This document shows, one piece after another, positions 883 to 51,762 of a DNA stretch of 64,000 nucleotides. Origin of the DNA: Escherichia coli (lineage in GTDB: Bacteria; Pseudomonadota; Gammaproteobacteria; Enterobacterales; Enterobacteriaceae); NCBI RefSeq assembly GCF_022846255.1, contig NZ_AP025682.1, one strand, 5' to 3'. Position 1 is the first letter of the stretch; each line of letters opens with the position of its first letter. The notes under the pieces were generated by a model. It made no database searches and was not told where the DNA came from. It saw only the letters and a program-made list of their open reading frames with translations. Both the position numbers and the translations under genes were made by a program.

Positions 883-2673
883 TTAAGTAAATAAAAACGC
901 CTCAACCTCTTTTAAAGTCTTTTCTAAAAAACGCAAAGATTCTCTGCAATCATCATCGCTCATTTGAGCTATTTTTTTTGCTAACGGGATCTTTCGTTTT
1001 TTGGGTATAAGATACTCAATCTTAATTGAGTAGTCTTTGTCTTTTAAATTATCAGAGAGTTTCATTTCTGATTGAATTAACTCATTAACTTTTTCTGGTG
1101 TAAGCATTTCATTTAAATTAGCTCTTCTTTCAAGATTATTTTCTTCTAACTCTTCTTTCCATATTGCAATAGGATAATTGGACTCTAAAACCCCTGGTAT
1201 TTTATAACCATCTTTTTTTGCACTGAGAACATCTTGCGTTGGTTTTAATGTAAAGCATTTAACTGATTTACCAATATCTTGAATATCACCAAGTTCTTTT
1301 TTGACATTTATACCATCTTTATCTGCATCTACAATGCCAACACATTTATATTTGTTTTGATGATGTTTATGGATATGATAATAAGCTTTTAACATGTCAC
1401 AAACATAGTTTGTTCCTGCGCCAAAATCTTTTGTAATTACCTCAATGTCATTCATCCTTTCTGGTATGAAAACTTGTATCGCCCTTTCAATTATAATTTT
1501 ATCGCTGGCTCCCTCTACGTACATTACAGCTTTTTCATCACCAAGTTTACCAACGGATTCAATATTTTCTATACGAGATTTCACCTCATCAATATAGGGT
1601 GAAAGCAATTCCATAACCCCCATTCTGTCATCAAGCAGTGCATATTTATCATCACAAGAGGTTACATCAGTCAAGTCTTTCTCAATAAAAATGCAATTAA
1701 CAGATCTATCTTGTTTTGAGAGATTATAAAATGCAGGAGAATGTGTAGTTATAAATAATTGTGATACAGGATCTGGCACGAAAGTTTTAAACTGTATGGC
1801 AAGCTTGATTGATGACGTTAACTCAAGGTTATTTTCTGGCTCTTCATAGCCCCATATAAATGTATACGGTGGGTTGCCTCTTGCCTGTAGTGTTTTTGTT
1901 TTCTCAGCAATATATTTTAATATTAATGGAATGTGGCGAGCTTTGATTCCATCACCTCGTTCATTAAGAGATATTTTCATTTCATTTAGAAAGTCTAAAT
2001 TCCCAAATAAATTACTTAGATCTCTAGGAAGCGAAAGTTCAGAGTTAAAACCAAGAGATTCGTTAATCTCTTTTGTTAACTCATGAAGATTCTCAGCTAT
2101 ACTCTTCTCAAATGCTTTGCTTGAATCGCTAAAATTCTCATTGAACACAGCATTTACAACAAAATATATTTCACTCCTTAATTTTGCAATATACCCTTTA
2201 TCCTTAATTGCAGGAATATAAACATATTTTACATTATTAAGTAACTGTCTTATATTTGAACGAGCTGGAATTTCTTGCTTTTCTGTTCGTCGACCGCCTC
2301 TAGGGCCACTATATGATTTAATCCCAAGTATACTCTCATCATAAAATCCACCTGAGCGCCATGACTTCGTCCATTCAATTAAATTTCCATTTGTTGCATG
2401 ATAACTAGATGGAATATCAAGAAGTAATTTAATTTTTATCTCTCTAGCTTTTTTAGAATATTTTTTTGCCGCATAAATATTATAGTCAGTTGAAAAATCA
2501 AAAGATTCTCCTGGATTTGTTTGCGAATTAAAGAAGAGGTTTAAAGCTCTTAATATATTTGATTTACCAGCATCATTATTACCAACAATAATCTGTAGTC
2601 GCGCACTATCAATAACTATTTTCTGAATTGATCGAAAATTCGTGATTTCAATTCTTCGAATACTAACCGGCAT
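883..2673 (-). CDS. OLD-family ABC-ATPase/Toprim nuclease (class-1 OLD-like, GajA-like or fused PARIS AriAB-like), ~596 aa
   Basis: N-terminal Walker A (IVGNNDAGKSNILRALNLFF), Walker B/D-loop-like FIWGYEEPENNLE and H-loop-like QLFITTHSPAF; C-terminal Toprim-like motifs (MYVEGASDKIIIE, GIVDADKDG). Start placed at the ATG at 2673 (M37 of the track ORF 883..2781), which has a GAGG Shine-Dalgarno ~8 nt upstream. GC about 30%, well below the core genome. Confidence 0.75.
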   Translation of the reverse strand: MPVSIRRIEITNFRSIQKIVIDSARLQIIVGNNDAGKSNILRALNLFFNSQTNPGESFDFSTDYNIYAAKKYSKKAREIKIKLLLDIPSSYHATNGNLIEWTKSWRSGGFYDESILGIKSYSGPRGGRRTEKQEIPARSNIRQLLNNVKYVYIPAIKDKGYIAKLRSEIYFVVNAVFNENFSDSSKAFEKSIAENLHELTKEINESLGFNSELSLPRDLSNLFGNLDFLNEMKISLNERGDGIKARHIPLILKYIAEKTKTLQARGNPPYTFIWGYEEPENNLELTSSIKLAIQFKTFVPDPVSQLFITTHSPAFYNLSKQDRSVNCIFIEKDLTDVTSCDDKYALLDDRMGVMELLSPYIDEVKSRIENIESVGKLGDEKAVMYVEGASDKIIIERAIQVFIPERMNDIEVITKDFGAGTNYVCDMLKAYYHIHKHHQNKYKCVGIVDADKDGINVKKELGDIQDIGKSVKCFTLKPTQDVLSAKKDGYKIPGVLESNYPIAIWKEELEENNLERRANLNEMLTPEKVNELIQSEMKLSDNLKDKDYSIKIEYLIPKKRKIPLAKKIAQMSDDDCRESLRFLEKTLKEVEAFLFT

Positions 2674-2807
2674 AAAAACCTCATCGTAACGCCTGTTTAT
2701 ATTTATAGCTGATAAAATAACACAACCACAATGAAAGTGAATAGTGAATTGCCACAAGTTTAACAAACACCTCAAGATCATTTAAAATGACTTAAAGAGA
2801 GGCTCCC

Positions 2808-3125: not shown

Positions 3126-3257
3126 TCACTTTTCCTATTATGATTAGTGAAAACATAAAGTGCGGAAACGAATGAAAATGCACTGTATTATTTAAAGACA
3201 TCATCCAACGCCCTTACCGTGGTATACACTCAGGCACCAGATGCTGTTTTACAGGGT

Positions 3258-3989
3258 TCACCTGCCATCCAGAAGACGCCCCGGCCCACGACTGCAACCA
3301 TAATTACGTTGCCCGGAACCGTCATGCTGCTTCGTCTCATACTTCACGAGATAACTGGCTCTGTTCTGGGCTTTCTGCATCGCTTCCACATCACCACGCT
3401 TGATCCAGAGAACAGCGGCTTCACCCGGCTTTTTGTCTGAAGCCTTCCTGGTTTCAGAACATCCACCCGACAAAGGCGTATCATCGGAAGAAGGGCGAGC
3501 ATCAGATGATGTCGGTTTACGGAAAGGCGTCCGCCTGGAAAAATGAACCAGTCCATTACCCTGCCAGGGCTCAAGATGCAGAGCGCTACACCATGCCAGT
3601 TGTATCAGCGTCGCCAGCGAAGAAGGAACGGTGAAATCCCCTGGCGAGCACCAGGTATCTTTGTTGAGCAGTAATATCACGTGATAATGTTTCCTGCCTT
3701 TTTCCTTGCCAAACTCCCGACACCAGAAATAACGCAGAGTGGTTGCACGCACACGCTTGTTGGCACGTCGTTTATGTCGCTGGTAAGCCTGAATTTTTGC
3801 TTTCAGGGATGCAAAAAAACGAGAAATCACCGCTGAATCTAAATCGGTATCCATGATGGTGGCAGGCATATACTCAGGGAAACGTAAATCCACCCGGATT
3901 AACGAGACGGCACGGTGTTGCGCCAGGGCACTGTTGAGAATACTTTCAAAACGGGATAACCAGTAAGCATTGTGTATTGGTTGATTCAT
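3258..3989 (-). CDS. YagK/YfjJ-family (inovirus Gp2-like) prophage protein
   Basis: 243-aa ORF whose N-terminal half (MNQPIHNAYWLSRFESILNSALAQHRAVSLIRVDLRFPEYMP…RYFWCREFGKEKGRKHYHVILLLNKDTW…) resembles YagK/YfjJ proteins of CP4-type cryptic prophages; GGAG Shine-Dalgarno ~9 nt upstream of the ATG at 3989. The Arg/Ser/Gly-rich C-terminal tail may be read-through. Confidence 0.6.
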   Translation of the reverse strand: MNQPIHNAYWLSRFESILNSALAQHRAVSLIRVDLRFPEYMPATIMDTDLDSAVISRFFASLKAKIQAYQRHKRRANKRVRATTLRYFWCREFGKEKGRKHYHVILLLNKDTWCSPGDFTVPSSLATLIQLAWCSALHLEPWQGNGLVHFSRRTPFRKPTSSDARPSSDDTPLSGGCSETRKASDKKPGEAAVLWIKRGDVEAMQKAQNRASYLVKYETKQHDGSGQRNYGCSRGPGRLLDGR

Positions 3990-5503
3990 GATGAGAGATC
4001 TCCGTTGATTTGGATTGACTTCACATCATTAATCACCGCGGTAAAACTTTACGGCATCCGGCATTGAGCAATGCTACAACTCTCTGATTAAGAGTGATTG
4101 AAACGGAACAAACCATCCCGGAACGAAAAGATAATTCTACACGCAGGGTAAAAACACTCAAGAACAGCGAATGGATTTAAAAACGACATGGACAACGAGA
4201 AAAGTCAGAAGGGAAAAGGATCCACAGAACATTCGAACAAAACACCAGAAACGCAACCAGAACGCTTCCTGGTAATGCAAATCAACAACAACCCCAAAAC
4301 CTACAGCTTAATCACACAACTCAATCACGGATGCGAATGACACGTTTAAAACCTGTTTACAGATAAACCCCGCCACAAGAACAAAAATCACCAACATCAG
4401 AATCGATTTTCTCATCCTGAAAAAGTTACGTTTCACTACGCACCATAAAAACGATTAACCATCGATAACGTAAACCTTATCTGAATCAAAAACACCAAAA
4501 CCGTTCATCACACTTTCGCAATGCAAGAAGAAACCTCATGACAAAAAGAATGACCTTACACGGAAAAGAAAACGTCAGGAATCGTTAATGCCTCAATCTG
4601 ATTGTTATCAAAACATCCAGAAAGTCGTTTAACAGAATCGTCGTAAGCACATCGAAAAAAACGTCAGATTACTTCAGGAAAGTTCGGGTTGATTTAGCGT
4701 AAAGATACTTTTCTCATGCTAACGTCGAAACTCGAAATCTCAGGAAAGGTTAAACGTAACATCAGTAAAATCGAATAGCAGATTGATTGCTGAAGCAGAA
4801 AGGTTTTACAGCAGCATTAAACTGATTTAGTTAACGTAAAGATTTACTAAACTGGATGTGTATAGCAATGCTTAACGAAAACACTTGTAGAAGTGTTTAT
4901 GAAAATACGTGTATAAGACTTACTGAAATGCTTAGTAAAAATACTTAGTAAAATACGTGTATATAGTATCATACCGACATTAGCAACATTCTCAGACACT
5001 CATGCAGACTGAATGTTGATTACCCGTTTTCACATCAGGCATGGTTCTTTACTGACCAAAAAACAAACTGGTTTACTCTTGAATTATTTTCTCTACCTCA
5101 GAAAACATGGTCTCAGGAATCTGCTATGGTTTCATAGTTTCTGTTGTTCCTTTCATAAAAGTTATAAGTCATTGTCATAATCATACGATAATCACTTTAT
5201 GTTAGTTTTTACTGTCACACGCTACTGACTTTTTCAGTCATTGCCAGAAAGGGGCTCTTTTTACTTCCATTTCACCACTCAACAAATGCAAAACTTGTCC
5301 AGTAAAGCGGACCACCTCTTGCTCACAAGCAACGAATCATCTCCAGGAACAGCCCTCAAACATTGCAGAAACAAAAACAACAAAACCCTCATTATCACTG
5401 ATGTTCGGAAAATTTCCCGGAACAAAAAAAACGAAATCAAAATGAGACTCATTATCATGGATGTAGTCAAAAAGACGTTATGGTGGCTTTCAGTTAAATG
5501 GTA
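3990..5503. other. ORF-free, strongly A-rich / T-poor tract (+ strand) with short direct and inverted repeats
   Basis: No credible ORF of 60 aa or more in any frame over ~1.5 kb; extreme A-over-T skew on the + strand; imperfect tandem units around 4860-4975 (repeated aatacgtgtata and gcttaNNNaaaa motifs) and an inverted repeat aacacttgtagaagtgtt. Confidence 0.4.
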
Positions 5504-6634
5504 CTATTTCTCATAAATCCACTTAACTTTTTTTACTGATTCATCCCAGATAACCACTTTATCAGTAAAAAATGAATTATATAGATTGACGAGTTTTTCT
5601 GTTTCAGTTATTCCCAATGTATTATGTATCAGTTGTAGATATGCTTTTATCCAGATTTCTTTACCCTCCCTCCACTTATCTATAAAACTTTCCAGCTTAC
5701 TTAATCGTTGATTTATAAAAAACGAATCAATATCATGAAAAAGCTCAACAAGAAAACAGCACGAGACAATCTCAACAAAAAACAAATTCTCCTTAAAAGT
5801 ATTATAAAACCTTATCAACACATAACGAAAAACACCTCCTGTTAATCTTTCCTGTTCATAAAACAACAAACCAAAAACAGGAGGAAATCTTTTAACCACA
5901 CCACTTTTAATCCAGTAAGGATGATGATTAGTCTTTACTGGCAGTGAATAAAAGAACAATTCGGTTTCTCTTTTCCCACCACAAACAGACAAAACTGTCT
6001 TATAAAGACTTTTTGAATCATTATGTCCTGATACCCCAGACGAATTAGCAGAGTATTTTCTTTTTACTTTTTGCCTTAATGGAGCTGGAAGAATAATAAA
6101 ACGGGATGGCAGATAACAATCGCTTTCAGAAGACCGGCATTCGCACACATGAAGATTTATATTTACATCCGGACAATTCAAAAACCACACAGAATAATTA
6201 TCGCACCGTTTGCAATATGAAACCCATGAATAAATTGCATAAAGTTCAGAAAGCGCATCTAACTCTGCTTTTGAATTAAATGTGATACCGTTTCTTCGAA
6301 TTCTCGTTTCCAGCGTTCTCCATGCCGGGGTTTTCAGTATCTCACGAACTTTTTTATTAAGTTCAGCCAGAGATGGTCCCTGCTCCTGTTTATGTTTCGT
6401 CCTGCTGTTAATGATTTCTCTTTCTTTTACTAATTTCCTCTTTCTTTTTGGTCCTTCTACCTTTCTTGGCAATGCTTCATTTAATCTGTGAACAGGATTT
6501 TGCTCTCTTCTTTTTTTGAGCTCACAAAACCTCTCATAATGTTTTCTGCACAGTCTTTTCTCCACTGCCATTTTTACTGAGAAAACCTGATTGTTACAAT
6601 TTTTTCTGACACATTTGTTTTTACGTCCGGTCAT
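5504..6634 (-). CDS. Hypothetical protein, 376 aa, basic Cys-rich N-terminus (possible zinc-binding/nucleic-acid-binding); function unknown
   Basis: Long ORF at about 35% GC. N-terminus MTGRKNKCVRKNCNN…CRKHYERFCELKKRR and a second Cys cluster YCKRCDNYSVWFLNCPDVNINLHVCECRSSESDC. No family recognised by eye. Confidence 0.6.
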   Translation of the reverse strand: MTGRKNKCVRKNCNNQVFSVKMAVEKRLCRKHYERFCELKKRREQNPVHRLNEALPRKVEGPKRKRKLVKEREIINSRTKHKQEQGPSLAELNKKVREILKTPAWRTLETRIRRNGITFNSKAELDALSELYAIYSWVSYCKRCDNYSVWFLNCPDVNINLHVCECRSSESDCYLPSRFIILPAPLRQKVKRKYSANSSGVSGHNDSKSLYKTVLSVCGGKRETELFFYSLPVKTNHHPYWIKSGVVKRFPPVFGLLFYEQERLTGGVFRYVLIRFYNTFKENLFFVEIVSCCFLVELFHDIDSFFINQRLSKLESFIDKWREGKEIWIKAYLQLIHNTLGITETEKLVNLYNSFFTDKVVIWDESVKKVKWIYEK

Positions 6635-6818
6635 CCTCTCATCTCCTGAAACAGCAGTATGTCATTAGTTCCCGTTCTGAAAAACTGACGCCATACTCCA
6701 TTACACTTTAACAATAATGTCCGTAATTCAGACATTCCATCATTTTTCACGCCCATATTACCTGAATGATAAACCGGATTAGTGTGATCCGGTTCAGTGA
6801 AATCAACAGGATACCGGT

Positions 6819-7703
6819 ATGTCATTCAGCCATTCTTCCCTCTCCGCACAAGTGAAATCATATCTGACGTTTCTTCCTGAAGAAATTCGTCAGAAAATTC
6901 TTGAACATCTCCACAGCGTTATTCATTACGAACCCGTGATTGGCATTATGGGTAAATCCGGCACCGGCAAAAGTAGCCTGTGTAATGCTATTTTTCAGTC
7001 CCATATCTGTGCCACGCATCCCCTGAACGGCTGCACCCGCCAGGCTCATCGTCTTACCCTGCAGATCGGTGAACGCAGAATGACGCTGGTCGATCTGCCC
7101 GGCATTGGAGAGACGCCGCAACATGATCAGGAATACCGGGCGCTTTACCGTCAGTTACTGCCGGAAGTGGATTTGATTATCTGGATCCTGCGGGCAGATG
7201 AACGCGCATATGCCGCCGACATTACCATGCATCAGTTTTTACTGAATGAAGGCGCAGATCCCTCGCGTTTTCTGTTTGTTCTCAGCCATGCCGATCGCGT
7301 GTTTCCTGCTGAAGAATGGAATGCCACAGAAAAATGCCCGTCCCGTCAGCAGGCGCTCTCACTGGCGACGGTGACAGCCCGGGTGGCAACCCTGTTCCCT
7401 TCATCATTTCCGGTACTCTCCGTTGCTGCACCTGTCGGCTGGAACCTTCCGGCGTTTGTGTCGCTGATGATCCACGCACTGCCACCACAGGCAACCAGCG
7501 CGGTGTATTCACATATCCGGGGAGAAAACCGCTCTGAACAGGCCCAGAAACACGCACAACAGACTTTTGGTGAAACCATCGGGAAAAGTTTTGACGTCGC
7601 CGTTGCCCGTTTCAGTTTTCCGGCCTGGATGTTACAGCTTCTGCGTAAAGCCCGGGACCGCATTATCCACCTGCTGATCACACTGTGGGAGCGTCTGTTC
7701 TGA
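6819..7703 (+). CDS. YfjP/YkfA/YeeP-family GTPase (CP4-type prophage)
   Basis: P-loop GIMGKSGTGKSSLCNAIF and G3-like DLPGIGE motifs; 294 aa. Confidence 0.8.
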   Translation: MSFSHSSLSAQVKSYLTFLPEEIRQKILEHLHSVIHYEPVIGIMGKSGTGKSSLCNAIFQSHICATHPLNGCTRQAHRLTLQIGERRMTLVDLPGIGETPQHDQEYRALYRQLLPEVDLIIWILRADERAYAADITMHQFLLNEGADPSRFLFVLSHADRVFPAEEWNATEKCPSRQQALSLATVTARVATLFPSSFPVLSVAAPVGWNLPAFVSLMIHALPPQATSAVYSHIRGENRSEQAQKHAQQTFGETIGKSFDVAVARFSFPAWMLQLLRKARDRIIHLLITLWERLF

Positions 7704-42230: not shown

Positions 42231-43322
42231 ATGCGTTTTCTGCGCCGACCAATATCGCTGCGCCAACGGCTGATATTGACCATCGGGGCCATTTTGTTGG
42301 TGTTTGAGCTGATCAGCGTCTTCTGGCTATGGCATGAAAGTACCGAGCAGATTCAGCTGTTTGAGCAGGCGCTACGCGACAATCGTAACAACGATCGCCA
42401 CATCATGCGTGAGATCCGCGAGGCGGTCGCCAGCCTGATTGTCCCCGGCGTCTTTATGGTCAGCCTGACGCTATTTATCTGCTATCAGGCGGTACGCCGC
42501 ATCACCCGCCCGCTGGCGGAGCTGCAAAAAGAGCTGGAAGCGCGCACCGCCGACAACTTAACGCCCATTGCCATTCACAGCGCCACCCTCGAAATCGAAG
42601 CGGTGGTTTCGGCGTTAAACGATCTGGTCAGTCGCCTGACCAGCACGCTGGATAACGAAAGGTTGTTTACCGCTGACGTCGCGCACGAACTGCGAACGCC
42701 ACTGGCGGGGGTGCGTTTGCATCTGGAACTGCTGGCGAAAACGCATCACATTGATGTAGCACCGTTAGTGGCACGACTTGATCAGATGATGGAGAGCGTC
42801 TCCCAGCTGCTGCAACTGGCGCGTGCCGGACAGTCATTTTCTTCCGGTAATTATCAACATGTAAAACTGCTGGAAGATGTCATTCTCCCCTCGTATGACG
42901 AACTTAGTACCATGCTCGACCAGCGCCAGCAAACCCTGCTATTGCCAGAGAGCGCCGCCGACATCACCGTTCAGGGTGATGCAACCCTGCTGCGGATGTT
43001 ATTGCGAAACCTGGTAGAAAACGCCCATCGTTATAGCCCACAAGGCAGCAACATTATGATTAAGCTGCAAGAAGATGGCGGAGCGGTCATGGCCGTTGAA
43101 GATGAAGGGCCGGGTATTGATGAGAGTAAATGCGGGGAGTTGAGTAAAGCGTTTGTACGAATGGACAGCCGTTATGGCGGAATTGGTCTGGGGTTAAGTA
43201 TTGTCAGCCGCATTACACAGTTGCATCACGGGCAGTTTTTCCTGCAAAACCGGCAAGAGACTTCCGGCACGCGGGCCTGGATACGGCTGAAAAAAGATCA
43301 GTACGTGGCAAACCAGATATAA
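42231..43322 (+). CDS. basS: Sensor histidine kinase BasS/PmrB
   Basis: 363 aa from the ATG (MRFLRRPISL…); an in-frame TTG at 42222 is an alternative start; H-box VAHELRTPL. Confidence 0.9.
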   Translation: MRFLRRPISLRQRLILTIGAILLVFELISVFWLWHESTEQIQLFEQALRDNRNNDRHIMREIREAVASLIVPGVFMVSLTLFICYQAVRRITRPLAELQKELEARTADNLTPIAIHSATLEIEAVVSALNDLVSRLTSTLDNERLFTADVAHELRTPLAGVRLHLELLAKTHHIDVAPLVARLDQMMESVSQLLQLARAGQSFSSGNYQHVKLLEDVILPSYDELSTMLDQRQQTLLLPESAADITVQGDATLLRMLLRNLVENAHRYSPQGSNIMIKLQEDGGAVMAVEDEGPGIDESKCGELSKAFVRMDSRYGGIGLGLSIVSRITQLHHGQFFLQNRQETSGTRAWIRLKKDQYVANQI

Positions 43323-43387
43323 AGAAAGCTGCTGACCACCAGCACGCTGAACACGGTAGTTAAACTTTCATAAACACGGTTTTTCAT
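43298..43387 (-). CDS. pmrR: Small membrane regulator PmrR (29 aa)
   Basis: Hand-translated MKNRVYESLTTVFSVLVVSSFLYIWFATY on the minus strand, overlapping the basS 3' end; coordinates hand-derived. Confidence 0.7.
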   Translation of the reverse strand: MKNRVYESLTTVFSVLVVSSFLYIWFATY

Positions 43388-43498
43388 TGCACTCTCCTCC
43401 GTTAACCTGGAGGAGAGTATGCGCGTCAGAGATTAAGTGAACCTTAAGAGTTCAATTGACCTGATAAGACAGCGTCACATCAGGCCATCCGTTTCAGC

Positions 43499-49120: not shown

Positions 49121-49199
49121 TAAGCCGGATAAGGCGCTCGCGCCGCATCCGGCAACGATGCCGACAGCCTGATGCGACGCTGACCGCGTCTTATCAGGC
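49121..49199. repeat. REP (repetitive extragenic palindrome) elements
   Basis: gccggataaggcgctcgcgccgcatccggca and an inverted partner; canonical E. coli REP motifs. Confidence 0.7.
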
Positions 49200-49264
49200 T
49201 TCCCTCTCATCTGTATAAATTTCGAACTACACTTAACTGGCTTCTCTTAACTGAGGTCACCATC

Positions 49265-51671: not shown

Positions 51672-51762
51672 TCGTAGGTCGGATAAGACGCCCGGCGTCG
51701 CATCCGACAATGTGCAGACGTTGATGCCGGATGCGGTGCAAGCACCTTATCCGGCCTACAGA
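51672..51762. repeat. REP elements between phnD and phnE
   Basis: aggtcggataagacgcccggcgtcgcatccgaca … gatgccggatgcggtgcaagcaccttatccggcctaca. Confidence 0.7.

Follow-up and report, generated by a model that had tools for sequence, protein, structure and literature searches.

A hypervariable, position-locked single-gene cassette of CP4-57-like islands in Escherichia coli

Stl of the Staphylococcus aureus pathogenicity islands (SaPIs) and cI of the cI/cro immunity regions contain helix-turn-helix (HTH) domains, and their operators co-vary with the HTH. We analyzed a 64,000-nucleotide stretch of an Escherichia coli genome (contig NZ_AP025682.1, hereafter the window), which contains an island of the CP4-57/CP4-44/CP4-6 type. 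A gene in this island, here called X (5504..6634, minus strand), resembles these systems in several respects. It encodes a protein of 376 residues whose RefSeq name is 'hypothetical protein' (similar to WP_001521655.1, the accession in a 99% identical locus). Like Stl and cI/cro, X occupies a fixed place as a single gene and is oriented divergently to the main operon. A conserved N-terminal module, predicted in X to bind nucleic acid, is combined with a highly divergent remainder, and the gene forms a mosaic, 'immunity-like' segment between stretches of conserved DNA. Unlike Stl and cI, X contains a zinc ribbon and matches no HTH family, and the adjoining inverted repeat does not vary in step with it. 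One class of alleles, type C, is ribbonless. A helper, an inducer and repression would apply to X only by analogy.

In the CP4-57 island of E. coli K-12, the same yfjJ-yfjP interval of the same kind of island is occupied by AbpAB and RnlAB. AbpAB acts against phages (PMC10732053), and RnlAB carries a toxin-antitoxin annotation; helicase and RNase LS are the enzymatic activities annotated in the K-12 slot. AbpAB and RnlAB share no sequence or profile similarity with X. They are annotated enzymes, whereas X has no recognizable catalytic domain. In contrast to X-type cassettes, which show homology between genera, they represent unrelated cargo.

The N-terminal module of X recalls two further groups of proteins. 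Ogr and Delta of P2/P4 are small, Cys-rich, zinc-binding transcription activators with the ligand spacing C-x2-C-x22-C-x4-C, and are encoded by P4-related elements. X is likewise Cys-rich and predicted to bind zinc, but its spacing is C-x4-C-x15-C-x2-H-x4-C, it does not match the Pfam family Ogr_Delta and it is about five times larger. HNH endonucleases of actinobacteriophages contain N-terminal zinc-binding repeats of the pattern 'C-x4-C … L-C-x2-H-Y-x-R'. The ligand pattern of X appears similar, including L-C-x-x-H-Y-x-R, and the module can be repeated, being present twice in subfamily P0020 of the X family. In contrast to these endonucleases, no HNH or other nuclease domain follows the ribbon in X.

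As judged by sequence comparison, X represents type A among the alleles of an AT-rich, hypervariable cassette that carries a single gene and has a fixed position. Its family is an undescribed superfamily without a name in the literature or databases. A sensor or regulator of the island is slightly favored as its function over a stand-alone defense gene.

Cassette types and distribution

X is located between a YagK/YfjJ-type gene of the 'inovirus Gp2 family', which is rolling-circle Rep-like (3258..3989, minus strand), and a YfjP-like GTPase gene (6819..7703, plus strand; open reading frame (ORF) list and RefSeq). The latter is the first gene of the backbone operon and is divergent from X. These flanks are as given in a preliminary description of this DNA, made from the sequence without database searches. 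The replaceable cassette comprises X, its 109-nt leader and 414 nt downstream (5090..6743), as delimited by break points in local blastn alignments. Similarity to islands with type-B or type-C cassettes ends at both cassette edges. The region 3220-5090 (yfjJ and 1.1 kb of non-coding DNA) and the DNA from 6743 onward are common to other islands, and 5090-6743 is type-specific. In about 1400 E. coli genomes, matches to the GTPase side (93-97% identity) begin only at 6742-6744.

At least three allele types, strongly diverged from one another, were distinguished. Type A, represented by X, occurs with 95-100% nucleotide identity in 462 of the 5426 complete E. coli genomes. Type B (407 aa, WP_001107219.1, 976 genomes) is clearly homologous to X over its full length, including the zinc ribbon (hhalign probability 99.6%, E 2e-23). 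Type C (316 aa, WP_000157734.1, about 500-740 genomes) is probably a homologue of the middle region of X without the ribbon (hhalign 89%, E 2.4e-6), and a convergent gene of 262 aa lies alongside it. In E. coli THO-003 this second gene (WP_000816188.1; locus L017, 7236-8024, plus strand) shares 4 nt with the X-like gene. A weak ribbon-helix-helix or RepB-regulator match (E 0.14-0.3) was obtained for the C-terminus of its product. This product might supply DNA binding in trans for the ribbonless type C.

Similar backbones do not predict the same cassette type. Next to a type-C cassette, the backbone shares 98.5% identity with that of this island, compared with only 91.8% next to a 79%-identical type-A variant. 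This indicates that cassettes are exchanged by recombination. By a rough count, types A, B and C occupy 515, 1069 and 812 places, respectively, and the GTPase segment 2510; the segment matches 1872 of the 5426 complete genomes. The agreement in order of magnitude suggests that a member of the family is present in most such islands. On the same rough count, nearly every CP4-57/CP4-44-type island appears to carry an X-type cassette. Two other states of the slot were found. Uropathogenic E. coli 536 has insertion sequence debris in it, and the K-12 CP4-57 slot contains abpB-abpA-yfjM-rnlA-rnlB and no remnant of X. X shows no remote similarity to K-12 AbpA or YfjM.

Full-length relatives with 28-37% identity to X are found in Salmonella, Klebsiella, Citrobacter and Atlantibacter. 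Relatives with 17-37% identity occupy the same place in E. coli and these four genera. A check for recurrence, suggested in the preliminary description, thus found homologues adjoining the GTPase operon across five genera. In every locus with enough flanking sequence, covering at least six lineages of the five genera, the homologue is divergent from a YfjP-like GTPase gene. On one short contig it divergently adjoins a WYL regulator gene instead. The gene on the other side is AlpA or YfjJ. Co-resident proteins show a graded divergence, with identities of about 73% for DUF932, 75% for CbeA and 51% for the GTPase, 34-40% for YfjJ and 29-34% for X. This suggests that X is inherited with the island and evolves fastest. 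The AT-rich composition also persists. The guanine-plus-cytosine (GC) content at third codon positions (GC3) is 0.28-0.36 in full-length relatives and 0.44 in type C, compared with 0.54-0.64 in the GTPase genes.

The preliminary description placed X in a variable cargo slot. The exchange of cassettes between near-identical islands agrees with this, but arbitrary cargo is not what the slot holds. Since its occupants are homologous across genera, it is a variable slot filled by one fast-evolving superfamily and not by unrelated cargo. The family was seen only at one position of one island family, not in varied contexts. With the limited peptide patterns used (a single pattern for viral contigs), viral contigs, plasmids and 50,697 phage records yielded no relatives, apart from one 62-kb circular record. 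This record (CP057032.1, locus L021), a non-mobilizable 'plasmid', covers the complete island, restriction endonuclease through CbtA, and may represent either an excised circle of the island or an artifact of assembly. A scan of GTDB, with one genome per species and patterns derived only from type-A-like sequences, returned three loci.

Gene X and its predicted protein

X is a real, selected gene. It starts with ATG, and the stop-free run at its position is 385 codons long; the longest run in 500 shuffles of the region was 159 codons, and the chance of a run of this length from composition is about 2e-14. The gene is full-length in 458 of the 462 carrier genomes. The ratio of nonsynonymous to synonymous substitution rates (dN/dS, or omega) is 0.30-0.32 against two E. 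coli alleles, indicating purifying selection. Values for neighboring genes range from 0.12 to 0.39, and selection on X is somewhat weaker than on most of them. The GC content of X is 0.344 and its GC3 0.284, compared with a GC content of 0.530 in the adjacent GTPase gene. The reported 376-aa ORF and its AT-rich composition therefore stand.

The small ORFs on either side of X do not appear to be genes. One, at 6631..6825, had been proposed as a doubtful partner gene upstream of X. It contains in-frame stops in two E. coli relatives, and the spacing between X and the GTPase gene in other lineages is only 83-98 nt, which leaves no room for it. The other encodes a hydrophobic peptide of 63 aa (5279..5470, minus strand). 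It lies 34 nt past the X stop codon and resembles a small membrane peptide. It is frameshifted by indels in T-runs in three relatives, and is thus not a gene.

That X itself is non-functional, a chance ORF or decaying remnant within AT-rich junk DNA, has some circumstantial appeal. Both small ORFs are spurious, the DNA on the yfjJ side of X is unannotated and its cassette-proximal part is near-neutral (79% identity to locus L014). However, the length of the open run, an omega of about 0.3 and the intact state of the gene in nearly all carriers refute it, as do the full-length relatives at 17-37% identity with invariant motifs. In addition, two independent and fairly confident structure models have the same architecture. 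We regard this explanation as very improbable.

The models are those of X and type B. The AlphaFold2 model of X, built from 16 sequences, has a mean predicted local distance difference test (pLDDT) score of 78 and a predicted template modeling score of 0.68. The type-B model (pLDDT 73) shows the same order of elements. Our model of X fits poorly onto the AlphaFold database (AFDB) entry for a protein with 96% identity (template modeling (TM) score 0.37), so the relative placement of the domains in the model is uncertain.

The N-terminus is predicted to form a conserved zinc ribbon or treble-clef-type module that binds metal (codons 6-45; 6500..6619, minus strand). The motif is K-C-V-R-K-x-C…K-R-L-C-x-K-H-Y-x-R-F-C. 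Among 16 full-length type-A-like relatives, C8, C29, H32 and C37 show no variation, and the conservation of C13 is 90% or higher. Residues 10-40 are modeled with a pLDDT of 87-89 as two short strands and a helix, and likewise in type B. The segment 1-55 has a pI of 10.3. In distant lineages the ribbon retains 52-62% identity, compared with 16-30% for the C-terminal body. The preliminary description noted two Cys clusters in a basic N-terminus as a possible zinc-binding domain. The first is the conserved ribbon. The second is not a family feature: CKRC is replaced by CKRG or CKRS even in 97%-identical alleles, and C141 is the only member of this cluster that is at least 90% conserved.

The ribbon is followed by a Lys/Arg-rich, disordered linker (codons 56-88; 6371..6469, minus strand; pLDDT 38-59). 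It is poorly conserved, with 12 Lys and Arg among 33 residues and a pI of 11.1. The middle domain (codons 89-195; 6050..6370, minus strand) is modeled as four helices and a β-hairpin. It contains the motifs TPAWRN-E--RR and LYSW--CK and the invariant residues W105, R113, Y135, S136, K142 and P183. It is the only part of X common to the short type-C relatives, the hhalign alignment covering residues 97-278. The C-terminal body (codons 205-376; 5507..6022, minus strand) is all-helical in the model and ends in a β-hairpin. It is fast-evolving, and its conserved features are E260-x2-R263, E288 and L-Y-N-S-F-F. No catalytic motif of an effector, NTPase or nuclease was recognized in X.

The protein was described earlier as having no recognizable function, and searches with single sequences and profiles agree. 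X, types B and C, the type-C partner and distant relatives gave nothing useful against PADLOC, NCBIfam, Pfam, PHROGs and the sequences of the Protein Data Bank (PDB). No significant match to X or its relatives was found among the 5027 models of PADLOC-DB 2.0, which include candidate families; even at E values up to 0.1-1, nothing matched X, the other two types, the partner of type C or four of the six distant relatives. Two stray matches (E 0.033 and 8e-4) span 34-54 residues and are not significant. No HTH or other Pfam domain was found in X or its family, in which the basic zinc ribbon is conserved. A profile search added 68 clusters, all of them 'hypothetical protein' and none with a Pfam domain. 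The X model matched no solved fold, and Foldseek found no match among the viral models of BFVD. Nor was X similar to primases, Rep accessory proteins or known anti-defense proteins. Rfam gave nothing significant across 3900-7000. A literature search with four RefSeq accessions and the island gene set found nothing relevant. The HMM and structure searches proposed earlier have thus been carried out, with no characterized family or fold matched.

Against AFDB50, Foldseek returned only uncharacterized Enterobacterales relatives and one protein labeled 'Reverse transcriptase' (A0AAX3CP38, Klebsiella michiganensis; TM score 0.55, E 1e-9, 16% identity). Taken at face value, this match would make X a highly diverged reverse transcriptase. 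However, no member of the family has a reverse transcriptase Pfam domain, and a conserved acidic pair is missing, E260 and E288 being the only near-invariant acidic residues. With no such domain, motif (YxDD) or structural match, this identity is disfavored and scarcely credible. The name of A0AAX3CP38 is most likely an annotation error. This 418-aa structural neighbor of X could pass its name on to other proteins.

The control region and candidate functions

The 184-nt intergenic DNA between X and the GTPase gene is 93.5% identical where dS at neighboring synonymous sites is about 0.3. At the cassette edge it contains a conserved box, ATATTACC / GGTAATAT (6753..6760), which is kept in every lineage, including locus L007, which lacks the GTPase. 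Read toward X, the box gives TAATAT, which resembles a -10 hexamer. Read toward the GTPase gene, it lines up with TATCAT, the -10 element of the K-12 yfjP promoter (TTGAAA-15-TATCAT). This promoter is listed, along with ykfA, in a genomic-SELEX (systematic evolution of ligands by exponential enrichment) promoter table (PMC3946193). X and the GTPase operon are thus predicted to have back-to-back promoters with overlapping -10 hexamers.

An inverted repeat (6762..6829, plus strand; repeat I7) in the GTPase leader covers the GTPase start codon. The RNA hairpin has a predicted folding energy of -24.1 kcal/mol (z -3.4). In Salmonella and Klebsiella lineages (L002, L005 and L009), a repeat of different sequence covers the Shine-Dalgarno sequence at the same place, and z values of the leader hairpins range from -2.0 to -5.3. 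The K-12 yfjP leader contains a hairpin followed by a T-run. The leader hairpin may mediate translational control or attenuation of the backbone operon.

We tentatively favor, with less than even confidence, the reading that X is an element-intrinsic, nucleic-acid-bound sensor or regulator of the island. The zinc ribbon and linker would anchor X on DNA or RNA. The variable body would bind a changing partner, such as a protein of a helper phage, plasmid or competing element, and X would then set the backbone operon, or YfjJ-dependent replication, on or off. Overlapping -10 hexamers on opposite strands would make transcription of the X and GTPase units mutually exclusive, and conflict with the partner, together with recombination in the conserved flanks, could generate the diversity of X alleles. 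The divergent orientation of X relative to the main operon, the constrained intergenic region that they share and the conserved box are in line with such a role. A regulator is preferred because the occupants of the X slot are homologous, near-universal, position-locked and never found on other mobile elements.

Several observations weigh against the regulator. No DNA-binding family or fold was matched, and the ribbon is recognized from its ligands and the local model. The type-C relatives have no ribbon at all, and K-12 CP4-57 has no relative of X while its backbone operon is otherwise intact. The inverted repeat follows the GTPase lineage and not the zinc-ribbon sequence: types A and B have the repeat in common and differ in the ribbon, and for type A and the Klebsiella proteins the reverse is true. 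The repeat thus probably belongs to the leader of the GTPase gene, and is disfavored as an operator of X. The low GC3 is explained no less well by imported cargo or by silencing of a costly or toxic gene. The argument for a regulator is, moreover, computational throughout.

X could alternatively be a stand-alone anti-phage defense or abortive-infection protein. In this reading, the variable body would recognize some component of the phage, the zinc ribbon would direct the protein to nucleic acid, and the outcome would be death or arrest of the cell or a block on phage DNA. The same interval of K-12 CP4-57 contains both AbpAB and RnlAB (PMC10732053), and the neighboring cargo is defense-like, being an AAA_15/OLD-type ATPase in this island and, in O157:H7, a restriction endonuclease. 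The cassette is sharply bounded, recombining and AT-rich, with very divergent alleles on near-identical backbones, and its persistently low GC3 would suit a silenced costly gene. However, X and its relatives matched none of the PADLOC models significantly, and no effector-type domain, NTPase or nuclease motif was found. Occupants of the slot are homologous across five genera, not a mixture of unrelated systems. The family is also confined to one position of one island family and was not found on prophages, plasmids or viral contigs, whereas known defense genes move between many elements. In view of the K-12 slot history, the behavior of the cassette and the persistent AT-richness, we consider defense unlikely but worth retaining.

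The preliminary description put X forward as a candidate defense gene in a known defense position. The exchanged cassette and the presence of AbpAB and RnlAB in the K-12 slot agree with this proposal; the absence of PADLOC matches and the narrow distribution do not. Annotation of defense systems, which it had also suggested, was run with PADLOC; X had no match, and the neighboring ATPase of the island gave weak matches to defense hidden Markov models (HMMs).

A further, improbable alternative is that X is an accessory for replication, mobilization or establishment of the excised island, or an anti-defense protein. The basic zinc-ribbon protein might act on the adjoining non-coding region of 1.1 kb, which is conserved, contains copy-variable repeats spaced by 24 nt and lies next to the Gp2/Rep-like gene. 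As an anti-defense protein, X would be grouped functionally with the antirestriction and RadC-type proteins of the backbone operon. Yet the loci of Klebsiella, Citrobacter and Atlantibacter keep X, and have no recognizable YfjJ or long gap in the sequence examined. The role of the repeats as an origin is putative, and the lack of similarity to primases, Rep accessory or anti-defense proteins also speaks against an accessory. The remaining probability falls to some other function.

A more speculative proposal, on the whole doubtful, is that the X superfamily represents a new-fold conflict protein. It would be either a single-gene, ribbon-anchored anti-phage or abortive-infection system, or a switch by which CP4-type 'cryptic prophages' sense helper phages or plasmids. 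In both cases the allele types, A, B, C and further ones, would be specificity classes whose diversity an arms race maintains.

Island neighborhood and implications

The backbone operon continues after the GTPase gene with genes for a WYL regulator, DUF905, DUF932, antirestriction, RadC, DUF987, CbeA/CbtA, DUF957 and DUF4942 proteins. This gene set, as seen in the ORFs, 99% identical RefSeq loci and K-12 CP4-57, identifies the island as CP4-57/CP4-44/CP4-6-type.

Between X and yfjJ lies a conserved non-coding stretch (3990..5090), delimited by blastn between islands. It is 85% identical to the type-C island and 70-90% identical to type B. It contains an array of ATACACGTATTTT/ACTAAG-type repeats (family D1) at 24-nt spacing (4871-4963), and indels between islands change the copy number. 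The array is a candidate origin or protein-binding site, as judged from its sequence. No Rfam family matched this stretch at E ≤0.1, and the gap is not alignable between the E. coli and Salmonella lineages.

Beyond yfjJ is a gene for an AAA_15/OLD-type 'ATP-dependent nuclease' (883-2781, minus strand; 632 aa, 596 aa in RefSeq; GC 30-35%). It gives weak matches to the AriA, GajA and Old HMMs. At the corresponding place, O157:H7 ATCC 43888 contains a restriction endonuclease and an H-NS paralogue. This place beyond yfjJ (883-2781) is the heterologous, defense-like cargo position of the island. X therefore sits among defense-like genes, the ATPase here, the restriction endonuclease in O157:H7 and AbpAB/RnlAB in K-12.

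Further features of the window were noted. A remnant of an IS481-family transposase occupies positions 1-880 and is annotated as frameshifted in the 99% identical SCU-176 locus. Further left of this remnant, SCU-176 contains a second Gp2-type gene and an AlpA-like gene. Rfam matches at gathering level were obtained for the small RNA STnc630 (43291-43456, minus strand) and for two naRNA4 (CssrE/REP-derived) elements at 49123-49200 (plus strand) and 51677-51756 (minus strand). All three are ordinary elements of the chromosome and have no connection with X.

A large share of E. coli genomes contains an island of the CP4-57/CP4-44/CP4-6 type; the control and movement of these islands are, to our knowledge, not understood. 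The X family is new to the literature, and the most fitting description is that of a hypervariable cassette locked to one position in CP4-57-like islands. Its recognition reassigns the heterologous defense-cargo position to the far side of yfjJ. It also means that in most such islands a member of one unnamed, fast-evolving family with no recognized fold appears to stand at the head of the backbone operon. The family is a well-defined and inexpensive experimental target. If it is a defense family, it would be a common and so far unlisted defense gene. If its members are sensors or regulators, they would provide a handle on the life cycle of these islands.

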